Shown here in pieces: positions 4,348-63,549 of a stretch of DNA of 64,000 nt. The position numbers were made by a program, and so were the translations under genes. A model generated the notes under the pieces. It did not search any database. It was not told where the DNA came from and saw only the letters and a program-made list of their open reading frames with translations. Each line of letters opens with the position of its first letter. The first letter of the stretch is position 1. The DNA is taken from NCBI GenBank assembly GCA_948434855.1, contig CAOJFR010000001.1, positions 19,629-83,628 on the forward strand, in the 5' to 3' direction. This stretch comes from an uncultured Clostridia bacterium (GTDB lineage Bacteria > Bacillota > Clostridia > Christensenellales > UBA1242).

Positions 4348-4558
4348 GTATACTTGCAGAACAAGTAGTTTGCAAAAACTGACCAAGAGAGAGGGGGTCA
4401 TGGGCTGAAAGCCTCCTTGTTAAGATTGCAAAATGAAACCACCTGCATTTTAAAAAACCAAATAAATTAATGAGGCTGGGCATAATGTCCAGTGAAGTAA
4501 GGTGGAACCACGATAAGTTATCGTCCTTACGCTAAGTTTTAGCGTGAGGGCTTTTTTT
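4348..4558 (+). promoter_or_regulatory. T-box leader with a Thr specifier, upstream of thrS
   Basis: It contains an AGAGA/GA motif (about 4386-4392), a candidate specifier gaaACCa (ACC = Thr, followed by a purine) near 4436-4442, and the T-box sequence aaGGTGGAACCACG (4499-4512). A terminator hairpin ccttacgctaa/ttagcgtgagg plus a T-run follows at 4525-4558. Confidence 0.8.
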
Positions 4559-4632: not shown

Positions 4633-6543
4633 ATGAAAATTCAGTTAAGAGATGAAATAAGAGAGTTTGAAAGGGGAACAACAACTGCAGAAATTGCAGC
4701 ATCAATTTCAGAGGGGCTTTCAAGGGTTGCAGTGTGTGGAAAGGTTAATGATGAGTTAATAGACCTAAACCTTCCAATAGAAGAGGATTGCAAGCTAGAA
4801 ATAATCACAACAAAATCACCAGAATATCAAGAGGTGTTAAGGCATTCGTGTGCCCATGTTTTGGCGCAGGCGGTTAAAACTCTATATCCTAATGCAAAGT
4901 GTTGGGTTGGTCCAGCAACCAAAGATGGCTTTTATTATGACTTTGATTTCAAAACACCAATCACAAACGAAGACCTTTCAGTGATTGAAAATGAGATGAA
5001 TAAAATAATAAAGGCAAATTTTGATATTGTTCGCAAAGAGGTTTCAAAAGACGAAGCACTAATCATCATGAAAAAGGCAAAAGAAAGCTATAAGGTAGAG
5101 CTTATAGAGGCAATACCAAATGATGAAAAAATCACAACCTACACTCAGGGCGAATATACAGAAGTTTGCAGGGGTCCACACATCAAATCAACTGGCATGA
5201 TAAAGGCGTTTAAACTTACCAAAATTTCAGGAGCATATTTAAAGGGCGATAGCAAAAATAAAATGCTCACCAGAATTTATGGTGTTGTGTTTGACAAAAA
5301 GAGTGAAATGGATGAATATTTCAAAAACCTTGAAGAGGCAATGAAAAGAGACCACAGAAAGCTTGGCAGAGAGCTAGAACTGTTTTTCTTTGATGAAACC
5401 GCACCAGGCATGGCATATTGGCTTCCAAAGGGTTTCACAATGCTAAACACTCTCATTGATTTTTGGAGAGCGTTGCATAAAAAACAGGGCTATCAAGAGT
5501 TTACTGCACCACAGGTAAATTCAAGCGTGCTTTGGAGAACCTCTGGTCACTGGGATCATTACAAAGAAGATATGTTTGTGCTAACCGATGCCGATGGCAA
5601 TGAGCAAGCGCTAAAGCCAATGAGTTGTCCAAACTCAATCAAAATATATCAAACAAAGGTAAGAAGCTATAAAGACCTGCCACTCAGGTTCAATGATATT
5701 GATGTAATTCACAGAAATGAAAAATCAGGTCAGTTAAATGGCTTGTTCAGGGTAAGAATGTTCCGCCAAGATGATTCTCACAACTTTGTTCGTGCAGACC
5801 AAATTGGCAGCGAAATTAAACAGATATTAGATATAGCAAAACAAATATATAATGTATTTGGCATTCCATATGAACTAACTCTTTCAACCAGACCAAATGA
5901 CTTCATGGGTGAAATTGAAACATGGAATCAGGCAGAGTCAGAACTTAAAGATGTGCTTAACGGAATTTGCGGCGAGGGCAAATATAGAATAAACGAGGGT
6001 GACGGCGCATTCTATGGTCCAAAGATAGACATAAAAATGAAAGATTGTTTAGGAAGAGAGTGGCAAACAGGAACAATTCAGGTAGACTTCCAGCTTCCAG
6101 AAAGGTTTGATTTAACTTATGTTGATAGTGATGGCAGCAAAAAGCGACCAATTATGATTCATAGGGCAATACTTGGCTCGTTTGAAAGATTTATTGGCAT
6201 AATAACAGAGCATTTTGCAGGGGCATTCCCAGCATGGCTAAGTCCAGTTCAAGTTAAAGTTATTCCAGTTTCAGAAAAATCAAATGAATATGCAAAAGAG
6301 ATTGCAGACAAACTTGATGCACAAAACATTAGGGTTGAAACTGATAATTCAAATGAAAGAATTGGTTATAAAATCAGAACTGCTCAATTAGAAAAAGTGC
6401 CATACATGATGATTTTGGGTGAAGCCGAGGCAACAGAGGGCAAGGTATCGCTCAGAAAACGTAATGGCGAAGAAATAAAAGACCTAAGCTATAACGAAGC
6501 TCTTTCAATGATAAAGAAAGACATTGATGAAAAACAAGTTTAA
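4633..6543 (+). CDS. thrS: threonine--tRNA ligase
   Basis: RBS aaaggag precedes the ATG at 4633. The protein has a TGS-like N-terminus, an editing domain (HSCAHVLAQA), a class-II core (FRVRMFRQDDSH, GAFYGPKID) and a C-terminal anticodon-binding domain. The track start at 4573 overlaps the T-box terminator. Confidence 0.95.
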   Translation: MKIQLRDEIREFERGTTTAEIAASISEGLSRVAVCGKVNDELIDLNLPIEEDCKLEIITTKSPEYQEVLRHSCAHVLAQAVKTLYPNAKCWVGPATKDGFYYDFDFKTPITNEDLSVIENEMNKIIKANFDIVRKEVSKDEALIIMKKAKESYKVELIEAIPNDEKITTYTQGEYTEVCRGPHIKSTGMIKAFKLTKISGAYLKGDSKNKMLTRIYGVVFDKKSEMDEYFKNLEEAMKRDHRKLGRELELFFFDETAPGMAYWLPKGFTMLNTLIDFWRALHKKQGYQEFTAPQVNSSVLWRTSGHWDHYKEDMFVLTDADGNEQALKPMSCPNSIKIYQTKVRSYKDLPLRFNDIDVIHRNEKSGQLNGLFRVRMFRQDDSHNFVRADQIGSEIKQILDIAKQIYNVFGIPYELTLSTRPNDFMGEIETWNQAESELKDVLNGICGEGKYRINEGDGAFYGPKIDIKMKDCLGREWQTGTIQVDFQLPERFDLTYVDSDGSKKRPIMIHRAILGSFERFIGIITEHFAGAFPAWLSPVQVKVIPVSEKSNEYAKEIADKLDAQNIRVETDNSNERIGYKIRTAQLEKVPYMMILGEAEATEGKVSLRKRNGEEIKDLSYNEALSMIKKDIDEKQV

Positions 6544-6555
6544 AATCTTTCAACT

Positions 6556-6690
6556 TGTCATAAAAATGTTATAAACTTGTTATAAAGATGTTATAAACTT
6601 GTTATAAAGTTGTTATATTCTTGTCATAAAAATGTTATAAACTTGTTATATTTTTGTTATAAAAATGTTATATTTTTTGTTAATATGGGT
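6556..6690 (+). repeat. tandem array of 12 units with an exact 11-bp period, core TGTYATAWW
   Basis: The TG of successive units falls at 6556, 6567, 6578, 6589, 6600, 6611, 6622, 6633, 6644, 6655, 6666 and 6678. The last unit is degenerate, with 12-nt spacing. No ORF covers the array. Confidence 0.95.
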
Positions 6691-6722: not shown

Positions 6723-6751
6723 TTGACAGTAACAAATTTTTATGTTATTAT
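6723..6751 (+). promoter_or_regulatory. sigma-A type promoter for the infC-rpmI-rplT leader
   Basis: TTGACA (6723-6728), a 17-nt spacer, then TGtTATTAT as an extended -10 (6743-6751). Confidence 0.5.
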
Positions 6752-6759
6752 ACCCATGT

Positions 6760-6934
6760 TTATTGAAGAGAAAGATCACTTTCCACCAAACGAATGAAAG
6801 ATTTTGTTTGAGTTAATATAATAAAATGTTCCCAAAATATCGGCACAAAATGGGTTTAAACTGTTTTTGTGCAACATAATTTGGACTTATTATATGTGAG
6901 TGGATTTTCTTTGAAATAACCACTCATTTTTTTG
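6760..6934 (+). promoter_or_regulatory. infC operon leader ending in an attenuator terminator (L20-leader-like)
   Basis: This structured leader of about 170 nt ends in hairpin tgagtgg/ccactca (6897-6926) plus a T-run, directly before the infC RBS. The L20-leader assignment rests on position and analogy only. Confidence 0.45.
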
Positions 6935-9821: not shown

Positions 9822-9908
9822 TTTGCAGCTAAATTTATAAAAATACACTAAAACTAAGTGTTTTATAACATTTAATTTATAATGCTAATAAATAGTTGTT
9901 ATAAACCA

Positions 9909-19134: not shown

Positions 19135-20145
19135 ATGAAATTTATGCAAAAAAAGTATCCGCTTCTTGTGTCAACAATTGTTTCTTGCGTAATTATTGTG
19201 GTATCGCTTTTCATTTTAGGCTTTTTTGGCTTAAAACTTAGTGTTTCGCTTGGCGGTGGCAGTCGCATGGAAGTTAATTTGGAGCAAAATGCTATTGTTA
19301 AAGAAGCTAAAGACAAGGTTGGTGAAGTGCTTAGCAAACACCATATTTCAATTGATTCATCTTTTGTTGAAGACAAATATGTTGCGGGCGCAGATGATGA
19401 AACAGAATATCTTAGAAAATGCTTGGTTATTCAGGTTGCTAAAAAGGGCATAAGTGCAGAGGAAAAAGCTGAAATTAAGTCAGAAATTGCTCAGGCACTT
19501 GGCACAAATCCGGCTTATGTTTCAGAAATTGAGGAAATTACAAGCTCTGTAACCGCAAAAGAAGTGCTTTTTGTGGCTCTTGCAGTTGGCATTATTGCAA
19601 TTTGCTTCTTTATTTTTGCTTGGATAAGATATAATGTGTTCGCTGGAATTTCGTTTGTTTTATCATTCCTTCACAACATTATTTTGTTCTTATCACTTAT
19701 AATTTTAACAAGAGTTCAGCTTTCTGTAATTTCACTTATAATTGTGCTTATTATGACACTTGTTATGAGCATAGTGCTCGTTAATATTTATGAAAAGTTT
19801 AAGGAAACATCAAAACTTTCATCTTCAGACAAAATTCCTGTTTCAGAACTTATGCTAAGTTCTGAAAAACAAGTGGTTATGCCTTATGCCATAATTTTGG
19901 CAACTGCACTGCTTTGTTCGCTTATGCTTTTAATTGTTCCTGCAAACATGGTTAAAATTGCTTCAGTTAGTGGAATTTATGCTTGTGTTATAACTGCTTA
20001 CACATCACTTATTATTGGTCCAGCGTCTTATGCGGCGGTGCTTGAGATTCGTGATATGAACCAAAAAGCACAGCTTAGCAGAAACGATACTGTGAACAAG
20101 ACAATTCAGAAAAAAATAAAGAAAAATTCAAAAACCAAAAGCTAA
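19135..20145 (+). CDS. secF: protein translocase subunit SecF
   Basis: The ATG at 19135 follows aaggagg. The protein (MKFMQKKYPLL...) has a TM helix, a periplasmic loop and a five-TM bundle. The track start at 19033 overlaps secD and was rejected. Confidence 0.8.
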   Translation: MKFMQKKYPLLVSTIVSCVIIVVSLFILGFFGLKLSVSLGGGSRMEVNLEQNAIVKEAKDKVGEVLSKHHISIDSSFVEDKYVAGADDETEYLRKCLVIQVAKKGISAEEKAEIKSEIAQALGTNPAYVSEIEEITSSVTAKEVLFVALAVGIIAICFFIFAWIRYNVFAGISFVLSFLHNIILFLSLIILTRVQLSVISLIIVLIMTLVMSIVLVNIYEKFKETSKLSSSDKIPVSELMLSSEKQVVMPYAIILATALLCSLMLLIVPANMVKIASVSGIYACVITAYTSLIIGPASYAAVLEIRDMNQKAQLSRNDTVNKTIQKKIKKNSKTKS

Positions 20146-20148
20146 AAG

Positions 20149-20170
20149 GAAGAGCATAGCTCTTCTTTTT
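20149..20170 (+). terminator. intrinsic terminator after secF
   Basis: Hairpin gaagagc-ata-gctcttc followed by a T-run. Confidence 0.7.
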
Positions 20171-20232
20171 ATTTTATTTAAATTGCATTTTTATAATTGT
20201 TGTGATAAACTATTTTTAAGTAGAGAGTTTTT

Positions 20233-28107: not shown

Positions 28108-28157
28108 TTCACATCCGTAAAATGTTAAAAATTTATAAAAAATATTGAAAAATATGC

Positions 28158-28184
28158 AAAATCCGTTTTCTAAACGGATTTTTT
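28158..28184 (+). terminator. intrinsic terminator
   Basis: Hairpin aaatccgttt/aaacggattt followed by a T-run. Confidence 0.75.
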
Positions 28185-28230
28185 TATTGTATAATAAGCA
28201 TGTAAAATAATCTTATATGGAGCTTTATTT

Positions 28231-29496
28231 ATGGCATTAAATGTATTTTCTAACGGACTAAAACTTGTTTGCACCGAAAAGCATGAAAAAAAGGTTGCTT
28301 GCGTTGTGCTTCACATTGCAGGTGGCACTCAATCTGAAAAAAATTATCAGAGTGGAATAAGCGACTATTTAACAAAAATTATGCTTATGGGAACAAAAAT
28401 TCACCCATCAGCAGATTCGCTTATGTCTTACGCAAAATTAAACGGCATTGTGCTTACTCCTCACAATTCTAAAGAGAGCATAACTATTAGTGCACTTTGC
28501 CCAAAAGAGAGTGTTGACACAGCAATTAGCCTGCTTTCAGAAATTGCGTTTGAAACCTCATTTTCGCTTGAGGCTGGCGACAAGGTCAGAAAAGCCCAGC
28601 TTGCTCAGGTTGAAATGATTAGCGAAAGCCCAAACTTTGCAATGAACAGACTTCTTAATTCAACGCTTTATTCAAGAACTGGTCTTGCTAATCCAAAACA
28701 GGGCACCGCAATTACTGTTTCAAGGTTTAGAGCTATTGACGCTAAGGACTTTTTGGAAAAAGTTTTCACTCCAAGAAACACTGTTATTTCAGTTGTTGGA
28801 GACATTAATCAAGACCATATTTATGAGCTTGTGAAAAAATATTTCTTTGACAGAATGAAGGAAGAGGAAAAGGAATATAAAAAACTTAAATATGTTTCAA
28901 AGGTTGATGACTTTAAGGGCACAGCAAAGGGCAGAATTAAAAGGCTTAATCAAACAAGAATTGAAGTGGCTTTTCCTGCAGTTTCATTCAAAGACAAAGA
29001 AAAGTATATTTTGGAAATTATTAAACCAATTTTAATTAAAAAAATTATGCTTTCGCTTGCAAACACAAATTATTATTATGAAACCAAGGTCAGCACAAAA
29101 TATTACGCAAACAATGGCAACATTGTGTTTGATATTATGGTTGACTATGAAAATGCAGAGCAGCATGTTCATGAATTTATTAAGGCATTAAACAGAGATG
29201 TTAAGCAAAGAGAAATCTCTGCAGATGAGTTTGAAACTGAAAAAAAGGTATTCATAACAAACTTTATCAATTCTTACGACAATGTTTTGGAGTGTGCACT
29301 TGTTTCTGCAAAAACTCTTGCACTTACAAAACAAACTTTTTCAGAGAGTGGGGAAAGGCTTAAAATTGACCTTTTGACAAACAAAGATGCCAACAAACTT
29401 TTGGCTAAAATTTTAGACTTTAACCAAATGGTTGTTATTTATCTTGGTCATGACATTGATATTGACTTTGACAAACTCGTTTCTGAAACAAAATAA
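28231..29496 (+). CDS. M16-family (pitrilysin-like) protein lacking the HxxEH zinc motif
   Basis: The length and layout fit M16, and the position is that of MlpA/YmxG. The motif position reads GISDYLTKIMLMGT instead of G.AHFLEHM.FKGT. Confidence 0.6.
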   Translation: MALNVFSNGLKLVCTEKHEKKVACVVLHIAGGTQSEKNYQSGISDYLTKIMLMGTKIHPSADSLMSYAKLNGIVLTPHNSKESITISALCPKESVDTAISLLSEIAFETSFSLEAGDKVRKAQLAQVEMISESPNFAMNRLLNSTLYSRTGLANPKQGTAITVSRFRAIDAKDFLEKVFTPRNTVISVVGDINQDHIYELVKKYFFDRMKEEEKEYKKLKYVSKVDDFKGTAKGRIKRLNQTRIEVAFPAVSFKDKEKYILEIIKPILIKKIMLSLANTNYYYETKVSTKYYANNGNIVFDIMVDYENAEQHVHEFIKALNRDVKQREISADEFETEKKVFITNFINSYDNVLECALVSAKTLALTKQTFSESGERLKIDLLTNKDANKLLAKILDFNQMVVIYLGHDIDIDFDKLVSETK

Positions 29497-62592: not shown

Positions 62593-62633
62593 AAAAAAAT
62601 AACATTCAATTAGTTTGAATGTTATTTTTTTTT
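62593..62633. terminator. bidirectional terminator hairpin, copy 1 of a repeated AATAACATTCA stem
   Basis: The sequence is aaaaaaataacattcaa-ttagt-ttgaatgttattttttt. Confidence 0.75.
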
Positions 62634-62738
62634 AATATTAAATTCATCAAAAATTGTTTAAATATTCCGTTTTAAATTAAACTTTCATGCTGAATGGGGC
62701 ACATTTTGTCTGCCCAATGAATCATCACAACAAATTCA

Positions 62739-63029
62739 CTAAAAATTTTTTCTTATAAAATGTGACTTGTTATGAAATTTCCTGCTAATATTTTTTAATT
62801 TATTGTCCTTTTTTATATCTTTTAAAACAAATTTAATAAGTTGTAAGCACTCACATTTGTGATATTCGCTTAGTTCATATAAAATCTTTTCAAAAAGGTC
62901 TTTTTGTTTCTTATTTAAACTGTGTTTAAGACAGCATTCATCAACAATGATTTTAGTATTTTTCATTACGCCATCATAAAACCCATCTTCTTCATAAAAA
63001 CGATAATATAATTCATTTATGTATTTCAT
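62739..63029 (-). CDS. hypothetical protein (96 aa from the ATG at 63029)
   Basis: The ORF is divergent from an XRE gene. Its start is uncertain. No motif was recognised. Confidence 0.4.
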   Translation of the reverse strand: MKYINELYYRFYEEDGFYDGVMKNTKIIVDECCLKHSLNKKQKDLFEKILYELSEYHKCECLQLIKFVLKDIKKDNKLKNISRKFHNKSHFIRKNF

Positions 63030-63032
63030 ATA

Positions 63033-63041
63033 TGTTATAAT
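63033..63041 (+). promoter_or_regulatory. extended -10 element (TGtTATAAT) facing the XRE gene
   Basis: TGTTATAAT lies on the plus strand 58 nt upstream of the ATG at 63099. It overlaps the divergent -10 and has the same core as the 11-bp array unit. Confidence 0.35.
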
Positions 63042-63065
63042 AATCTTACAATAGTAAGAAGTCAA
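63037..63065 (-). promoter_or_regulatory. candidate minus-strand promoter giving a leaderless mRNA
   Basis: Read on the minus strand: TTGACT (63065-63060), a 17-nt spacer, TATTAT (63042-63037), 7 nt, then the ATG (63029). Confidence 0.4.
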
Positions 63066-63098
63066 ATAAAATTCTTACTTTTGTGAGATAATTTTATT

Positions 63099-63311
63099 AT
63101 GAAAATAATAAATGCATTTAGCGAGAATTTAAAAATGCTTAGAGAGGAAAGAAAAATAGGGCAGGTTCAACTTGCAGAAGCCATAGGCGTAAGTAAAGGT
63201 GTTATAAGTTTATGGGAGAATGGACATAGAGAGCCAACGTTAACATCTCTTATAGCCCTTGCGAATTATTTTGATATATCACTAAATGAATTAGTTTCTT
63301 CTGAAGCATAA
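63099..63311 (+). CDS. XRE-family HTH regulator (70 aa)
   Basis: The HTH reads IGQVQLAEAIGVSKGVISLWENGHREP. Confidence 0.75.
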   Translation: MKIINAFSENLKMLREERKIGQVQLAEAIGVSKGVISLWENGHREPTLTSLIALANYFDISLNELVSSEA

Positions 63312-63356
63312 AATAAAAAGCAATAAGTCAAGTTAAAAAAATATTAAAATTAGTTA

Positions 63357-63396
63357 TAAAAAAATAACATTCATTTATTTTGAATGTTATTTTTTT
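63357..63396 (+). terminator. terminator hairpin, copy 2 of the AATAACATTCA stem
   Basis: The sequence is aaaaaaaataacattca-tttattt-tgaatgttatttttt. Its T-run runs straight into the first unit of array 2. Confidence 0.75.
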
Positions 63397-63549
63397 GTTA
63401 TAAACTTGTCATAAAGTTGTTATAAAGTTGTTATAAAGTTGTTATAAAGTTGTTATATTCTTGTTATATTTTTGTTATAAAAATGTTATAAAGATGTTAT
63501 ATTCTTGTTATATTCTTGTTATATTTTTGTTATAAAAATGTTATATAAA
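63396..63549 (+). repeat. tandem array of 14 units with an exact 11-bp period, core TGTYATAWW
   Basis: The TG of successive units falls at 63396, 63407, 63418, 63429, 63440, 63451, 63462, 63473, 63484, 63495, 63506, 63517, 63528 and 63539. It has the same orientation and unit types as the array at 6556-6690. Confidence 0.95.

Follow-up and report, generated by a model that had tools for sequence, protein, structure and literature searches.

Plasmid R1 parC is built from 11-bp iterons that are bound by ParR and arranged as two blocks of five flanking the par promoter, next to parM-parR. The same 11-bp head-to-tail geometry is that of OmpR-family sites. Extended -10 promoters (TGnTATAAT) and AT-rich "promoter islands" are known as classes. 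The consensus for WalR binding in Bacillus subtilis is TGTWAH-N5-TGTWAH (PMC9210968). Mycobacterial interspersed repetitive units (MIRUs) form a dispersed family of minisatellites, or VNTRs, with units of ~40-100 bp (PMC3635867). Here we compare these systems with two arrays of 11-bp units in a 64,000-nt stretch of DNA (the window) from an uncultured, spore-forming gut Clostridia bacterium. The arrays have the period of the iterons and operators and the strain-to-strain variation of the minisatellites.

Results

Two arrays are built from one set of 11-bp units

The window is chromosomal DNA of 31-39% G+C with a steadily positive GC skew. Nearly all genes are on the + strand, and a spoIIAA-spoIIAB-sigF-like operon lies at 56.1-57.7 kb. 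The nearest ThrS sequences in the species-representative collection are 88% identical and belong to "Clostridia bacterium" MAGs. Two long gaps (19454-20232 and 28108-29431) are free of ORFs of ≥60 aa, of tRNAs and of Rfam matches.

Array 1 (6556-6687, + strand) starts 12 nt after the stop codon of thrS (4633-6543, + strand, 636 aa) and consists of 11 perfect 11-bp units and a degenerate twelfth (ttgttaatatg, 6677-6687). The heptamer TGTYATA recurs in exact 11-bp phase at 6556, 6567 and onward to 6666. TRF assigns a period of 11 to both arrays, with 11.0 copies in array 1 and 13.7 in array 2. The analysis bears out the 11-nt period and the twelve units reported for array 1 in a preliminary description of the window. 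That description also had the array filling the thrS-infC spacer, which is an overstatement, as it occupies 132 of the ~418 bp. The distance it gave from the array to the -35 element of the infC promoter, 33 bp, was close to the measured one: the -35 hexamer (TTGACA) is at 6723, 35 bp past the degenerate unit and 46 bp past the last perfect one. No terminator was found between thrS and array 1. On the other side of the gene, a T-box leader at 4349-4531 (+) scores 68 bits (E = 5.6e-14); the default whole-window Rfam scan does not report it because the score falls below the gathering score of 93.

Array 2 (63385-63549, + strand) has 15 units drawn from the same vocabulary. It lies where the 3' ends of an XRE gene and an 87-aa gene converge, facing the 3' end of the latter. 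Its first unit, tgttatttttt, doubles as the 3' arm of a terminator hairpin. The earlier placement of this array at 63396-63549 had the correct end but missed that unit. Both arrays lie just 3' of a + strand gene and in sense orientation to it.

A perfect unit is a TGT[T/C]ATA core followed by a 4-nt A/T-rich spacer. The spacer set across all alleles is AAACT, AAAGT, AAAGA, AAAAA, ATTCT and ATTTT, and the two cores are TGTTATA and TGTCATA. A search of the window with two phased units gave 24 matches where 0.06 are expected, every one of them within the two arrays. An exact 29-nt block, tgttatatttttgttataaaaatgttata, occurs three times on the + strand (6644-6672, 63462-63490 and 63517-63545), just as the preliminary description had it, and forms the 3'-terminal units of both arrays. 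The two loci are 56.8 kb apart. The same unit appears at two loci within ~80 kb of species DNA, and no third array was found in those ~80 kb, which include contigs reaching ~8.2 kb to the left and ~5.6 kb to the right of the window. At the left limit of this coverage, three contigs from independent assemblies (L299, L300 and L301) all end at a terminator-like hairpin, AAAACCAGCCTAAAGTCAGGCTGGTTTTT, and their sequences diverge just past it, which marks a region that is repeated or differs between strains.

The only ORFs that run across the arrays are mechanical ones of 24-40 aa, and coding sequence was rejected as their identity. Neither array matches an Rfam family or a tRNA, and the RNA fold of array 1 has z = -1.05. 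The end of a mobile element or a target-site duplication was also rejected on direct reading, since the flanks of the two arrays have nothing in common beyond the array itself. Elsewhere in the window, at 9860-9907, two unit-like 11-mers are inverted with 24 bp between them (GTTTTATAACA ... TTGTTATAAAC). This pair sits between the YebC-family gene and an antitoxin/zeta-toxin gene pair and may be either chance or an operator.

Both arrays are real and vary among strains

Independent assemblies were used to judge whether the arrays are absent or collapsed elsewhere. The SPAdes assembly ERZ14864032 reproduces array 1 (contig L033/L302) and array 2 (L116/L309) without a difference, while its flanking sequences differ from the window at 0.2-0.7% of positions. 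An assembly artefact is ruled out by this result, and both arrays are real. Logan short-read contigs from many samples end inside the arrays, as expected when 29-mers recur within and between them.

The arrays are allelic within the species. Array 1 has 12 units in the window and in L302. A second 12-unit allele (L304) carries two unit changes (aaaga to aaagt, and tgttataaact to tgtcataaact), and a third (L299 with L028) has 13 units by duplication of one unit. At array 2, the 15-unit allele of the window recurs in L309. L117 also has 15 units, with the boundary unit converted and the T-run of the terminator lost. L310 and L317 carry a 14-unit mosaic, and the partial contigs L311 and L314 show two further arrangements, making at least four arrangements of 14 or 15 units. 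Flank identity between these strains and the window is 96.3-100%, and the unit order in L314 already differs at 0.3% flank divergence. All alleles use the common unit vocabulary and keep the 3'-terminal units constant. Of the roles first suggested for the repeats, only that of a variable minisatellite has direct support, with unit number and order differing at both loci between near-identical flanks.

Variation within the unit is uneven. Across all units and alleles seen, only position 4 of the TGT.ATA heptamer varies, and positions 8-11 vary freely. This invariance could reflect selection on a binding site and is suggestive, not statistically compelling: ~7 mutational steps account for all variants, and seven random steps would hit no more than 5 of the 11 positions 56% of the time. 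With P = 0.56 for ≤5 variable positions at ~7 steps, statistical proof of a constrained core is not achievable. Both arrays are present in every strain seen, down to ~96-97% flank identity, and stay within 12-13 and 14-15 units. This retention and the narrow length range point weakly to maintenance.

Array 2 begins in the arm of a terminator hairpin

The hairpin at the left edge of array 2 is an AT-rich, symmetric terminator of the bidirectional type (63359-63395; AAAAAATAACATTCA-loop-TGAATGTTATTTTTT). A second copy is located at 62594-62630 and has no array. Array 2 begins exactly in the 3' arm of the copy at 63359 (TGAA|TGTTATTTTTT). Between the two hairpins lies a two-gene cassette (62640-63330) made up of a 96-aa hypothetical gene (62739-63029, - strand) and the XRE helix-turn-helix gene (63099-63311, + strand). 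The relative L329 lacks the cassette; its aminotransferase gene and 87-aa gene face each other directly. The cassette thus has the look of an insertion, which either duplicated the terminator or came with one of its own. No viral relatives of the 96-aa protein were found. On direct reading, the XRE promoter region contains a palindrome, CTTAC-N4-GTAAG, that differs from the array units.

Sister species have neither array

The infC operon is preceded by a near-consensus promoter (6723-6751, + strand) with TTGACA, a 17-nt spacer, TATTAT and an upstream TG. It is followed by a conserved, structured leader of ~180 nt (6753-6934, + strand). An attenuator hairpin with a T-run, GTGAGTGG...CCACTCA (6896-6933), closes the leader, and the first base of infC is 6962. 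The promoter, leader and attenuator can be aligned with their counterparts in four sister species (L037, L038, L039 and L040), and the alignment supports a long-range AATATAATAA/TTATTATAT leader helix as well as the terminator stem. The leader matches no Rfam family even at E = 1. By position it resembles an L20-type attenuator, and this group of Clostridia may have here a leader that is divergent or undescribed.

In three of these sister species (L038, L039 and L040; ThrS 80-86% identical), thrS is followed immediately by the infC promoter and leader, and there is no array. At the site of array 2, the 87-aa gene of 11 relatives is followed by nothing more than a plain terminator hairpin. Two TGTYATA units in phase do not occur at all in the 614 kb of sister-species sequence surrounding the two loci. 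Comparison of array presence and copy number in relatives, as the preliminary description had proposed, returned no array in any sister species examined. The lack of phased matches, together with the array-free loci of the relatives, shows both arrays to be private to the species. The infC control region is complete without array 1 in every relative examined, and a link between array 1 and infC regulation is not supported.

Phased TGTTATA and TGTYATA scans of genome, viral and metagenome collections returned no related Clostridia MAG. All matches were to 11-bp minisatellites that are unrelated and for the most part homogeneous, in giant viruses, Bacteroidales, Methanosarcina and others. As none comes from this species or uses its unit vocabulary, they are uninformative on function. 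A BLAST search of array 2 against plasmid and phage collections gave no match, a result to which the low-complexity filter may have contributed. Literature searches brought up no relevant account of the unit sequence or of Clostridia repeats with an 11-bp period.

Two of the collection matches have a setting of their own. In Bacteroidales MAGs (L001/L025 and L006/L023), four phased copies of TGTTATAAC recur with an 11-bp period and a variable 2-nt spacer. They occupy orthologous positions in different species, beside gene ends or starts, and look like a conserved direct-repeat transcription-factor site unrelated to the organism of the window. In the viral contig L156 (4720-4770, - strand), three to four phased CTTGTCATAAA repeats lie immediately 5' of a gene for a 774-aa primase/helicase-like protein. 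These are iteron- or operator-like and show that TGTCATA repeats with an 11-bp period can be associated with replication elsewhere.

Alternative readings of the arrays

If the arrays were clusters of extended -10 elements, sigma-A holoenzyme would bind or melt many overlapping sites, as in a promoter island. Array 1 would then start weak transcripts into the infC leader, and array 2 weak antisense transcripts of the 87-aa gene; alternatively, polymerase would be sequestered. The units do read TGTTATAAA or TGTTATATT against the TGnTATAAT consensus, and good promoters in the window use the unit core (TGTTATTAT at infC, TGTTATAAT upstream of the XRE gene). The TATATT-type units, three in array 1 and five in array 2, keep the -11 A and the -7 T on direct reading. 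The initially claimed match at 8 of 9 positions is correct, but one that good (7 of the 8 specified positions) occurs by chance in ~3% of random AT-rich 11-mers. The commonest hexamer, TATAAA, has an A at -7 in place of the T, the TGTCATA units lose the -12 T as well, and a consensus scan of the unit strand found no -35/-10 pair inside either array. Array 2, moreover, is directed at a convergent gene's 3' end, with no downstream gene in the same orientation, and the array-free relatives use the same promoter for infC. A promoter cluster is quite improbable on this evidence. Intrinsically curved, UP-like DNA that boosts the infC-rpmI-rplT promoter would fit the recurrence of A/T tracts every 11 bp and the position of array 1 at about -47 to -167 relative to that promoter. 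Curvature was estimated with the Bolshoy-Trifonov wedge model, which here gives rough values only. By this estimate the arrays rank among the top 3-6% of windows in the AT-rich sequence, but their end-to-end/contour ratios of 0.83 and 0.81, against a window mean of 0.93, are far from that of a phased A6 control (0.33). True A4-6 or T4-5 tracts are found in some units only, the region adjacent to the -35 has its own A-run outside array 1, array 2 is upstream of no promoter, and the relatives again lack the array. All cores had been described as lying on roughly one face of the helix. This holds locally and would fail over a whole array, because 11.0 bp per unit against ~10.5 bp per turn means a drift of ~17 degrees per unit, or about half a turn per array. 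Such an upstream element is highly improbable. The array-free relatives, the placement of array 2, the missing -35/-10 pairs and the modest curvature together weaken the earlier proposals of an RNA-polymerase landing pad or UP-like curved DNA acting on infC. Barely credible is an element acting in RNA, in which repeats transcribed with thrS or the XRE gene as part of the 3'-UTR would be folded or bound by protein. Both arrays do follow a + strand gene closely in sense orientation, and thrS has no terminator ahead of array 1. Against this, shuffled sequence folds as well as array 1 does, most of the strong fold at locus 2 comes from the adjoining terminator hairpin, Rfam gives no match, and array 2 lies past a terminator.

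An iteron array coated by a head-to-tail binding protein is unlikely too, though less so than the readings above. The binder of the 12-15 repeats would be a winged-helix regulator of the OmpR/WalR/PhoP type or a ribbon-helix-helix protein like ParR, and the array would serve as a sink that titrates the binder, as a roadblock or insulator made of nucleoprotein, or as a handle of the centromere kind. TGTTAT-N5-TGTTAT fits the WalR consensus exactly, and 19 of the window's 20 matches to that consensus are in the arrays, where 1.09 would be expected in the whole window. The reverse strand of the units also resembles PhoP boxes, and the invariant core with its variable spacer speaks for this reading as well. 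However, TGTWAH occurs in some register in ~7% of random AT-rich units, and the TGTCATA units violate its W. Operators of response regulators have 2-6 half-sites, stand upstream of regulon genes and are conserved. Here, 12-15 sites stand in gaps at gene ends, their order and number differ between strains, and the relatives have no array at all. The hexamer spacing of a WalR/PhoP operator is present, and its location at a regulon promoter and its conservation are not. The genes around locus 1 (thrS, infC-rpmI-rplT, a YebC-family gene and a zeta-toxin gene) and locus 2 (an aminotransferase gene, the XRE gene and small hypothetical genes) include no partition or replication gene and no otherwise unexplained regulator, and the XRE gene has its own, different promoter palindrome. 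An adjacent partition operon with iterons flanking its promoter, as at parC, was likewise not found, and neither array contains a promoter. The suggestion of an iteron or centromere fits the period, but not the neighboring genes, and is neither supported nor excluded. The resemblances to the extended -10 element and to the WalR box are leads, not tests, since 3-7% of AT-rich units would show them by chance and many motifs could match. If the minisatellite reading is right, they are not to be read as function because sister species run the infC region without an array. It is distinctly unlikely that the arrays are functional iteron tracts, private to this one species, on which a WalR/PhoP-like regulator or sigma-A holoenzyme polymerizes across 12-15 phased TGTYATA sites. 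Such tracts would titrate the binder or form a boundary of nucleoprotein where genes end, and slippage would tune the "dose" of sites. If such a binder exists, strain-variable tracts of 12-15 response-regulator or -10-like sites would amount to a sink, heritable and adjustable, for RNA polymerase or a global regulator.

Discussion

On balance, and with modest confidence, we favor the view that the arrays are a young, lineage-specific AT-rich minisatellite of the VNTR kind, dispersed at two loci, and not a conserved cis-regulatory device. Two hallmarks of that kind were observed. The repeats keep a constant period far beyond chance, and their copy number and order differ between near-identical flanks. 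Because the arrays are absent from every sister species examined, they are most likely a young minisatellite and not a built-in element of infC control.

We infer slippage and recombination as the mechanism, a hairpin arm as the seed and the lack of a selected function. Slipped-strand mispairing, combined with unequal recombination or recombination between the arrays, would gain, lose and reshuffle units. The 11-bp period would stay intact under these processes, and new units would be drawn from a closed set of variants already in use. The common block of 29-31 nt would offer enough identity for exchange between the two loci, and sequence has probably been exchanged through it. At locus 2 the array starts in the hairpin arm, with its TGTTAT-plus-T-run sequence, and overwrites that arm in one strain (L117). 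AT-rich motifs of the promoter or terminator kind could serve in this way as the seed or anchor of an array. That array 2 begins in the arm of the second hairpin copy, while the first copy has no array, suggests that the TGTTAT-plus-T-run motif played this role.

If the minisatellite reading is right, its value is mostly practical. The arrays would provide a strain-typing marker for an uncultured gut Clostridia species, and they would account for the breaks in short-read assemblies at both loci.

Each of the known systems captures part of this picture. Extended -10 promoters and promoter islands resemble the arrays in the 8-of-9 match, in the overlapping -10-like hexamers and in the TGTTAT core, which the promoters of the window also use. 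The arrays differ from them in having no -35 partner, in the lack of a -7 T in most units and in the direction of array 2 into the end of a convergent gene. The likeness to WalR/PhoP-type operators (PMC9210968) lies in the geometry of a hexamer and a 5-bp spacer, which the TGTTAT units match exactly. Those operators lie in promoters of genes for the cell envelope or phosphate and comprise 2-6 half-sites, whereas the arrays comprise 12-15 consecutive sites at gene ends, are not conserved in sister species and include C-variant units that break the consensus. With R1 parC the arrays share an 11-bp period, ~10-12 head-to-tail units and a high A+T content. Unlike parC, each array is one uninterrupted chromosomal block, there are two loci without partition genes nearby, the arrays vary among strains and the sequence is unrelated. 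MIRUs differ in unit length, ~40-100 bp against 11 very AT-rich bp here, and the arrays are so far confined to two loci. The arrays also form a mosaic of six spacers around a fixed heptamer and do not overlap the flanking start or stop codons, again unlike MIRUs. In the remaining features the two agree: head-to-tail units of one family occur at more than one intergenic locus, co-oriented with the neighboring genes, their copy number and order vary by strain, they have no ORF of their own, and they are found in a single lineage. By this comparison, MIRUs are the nearest analogue of the arrays.
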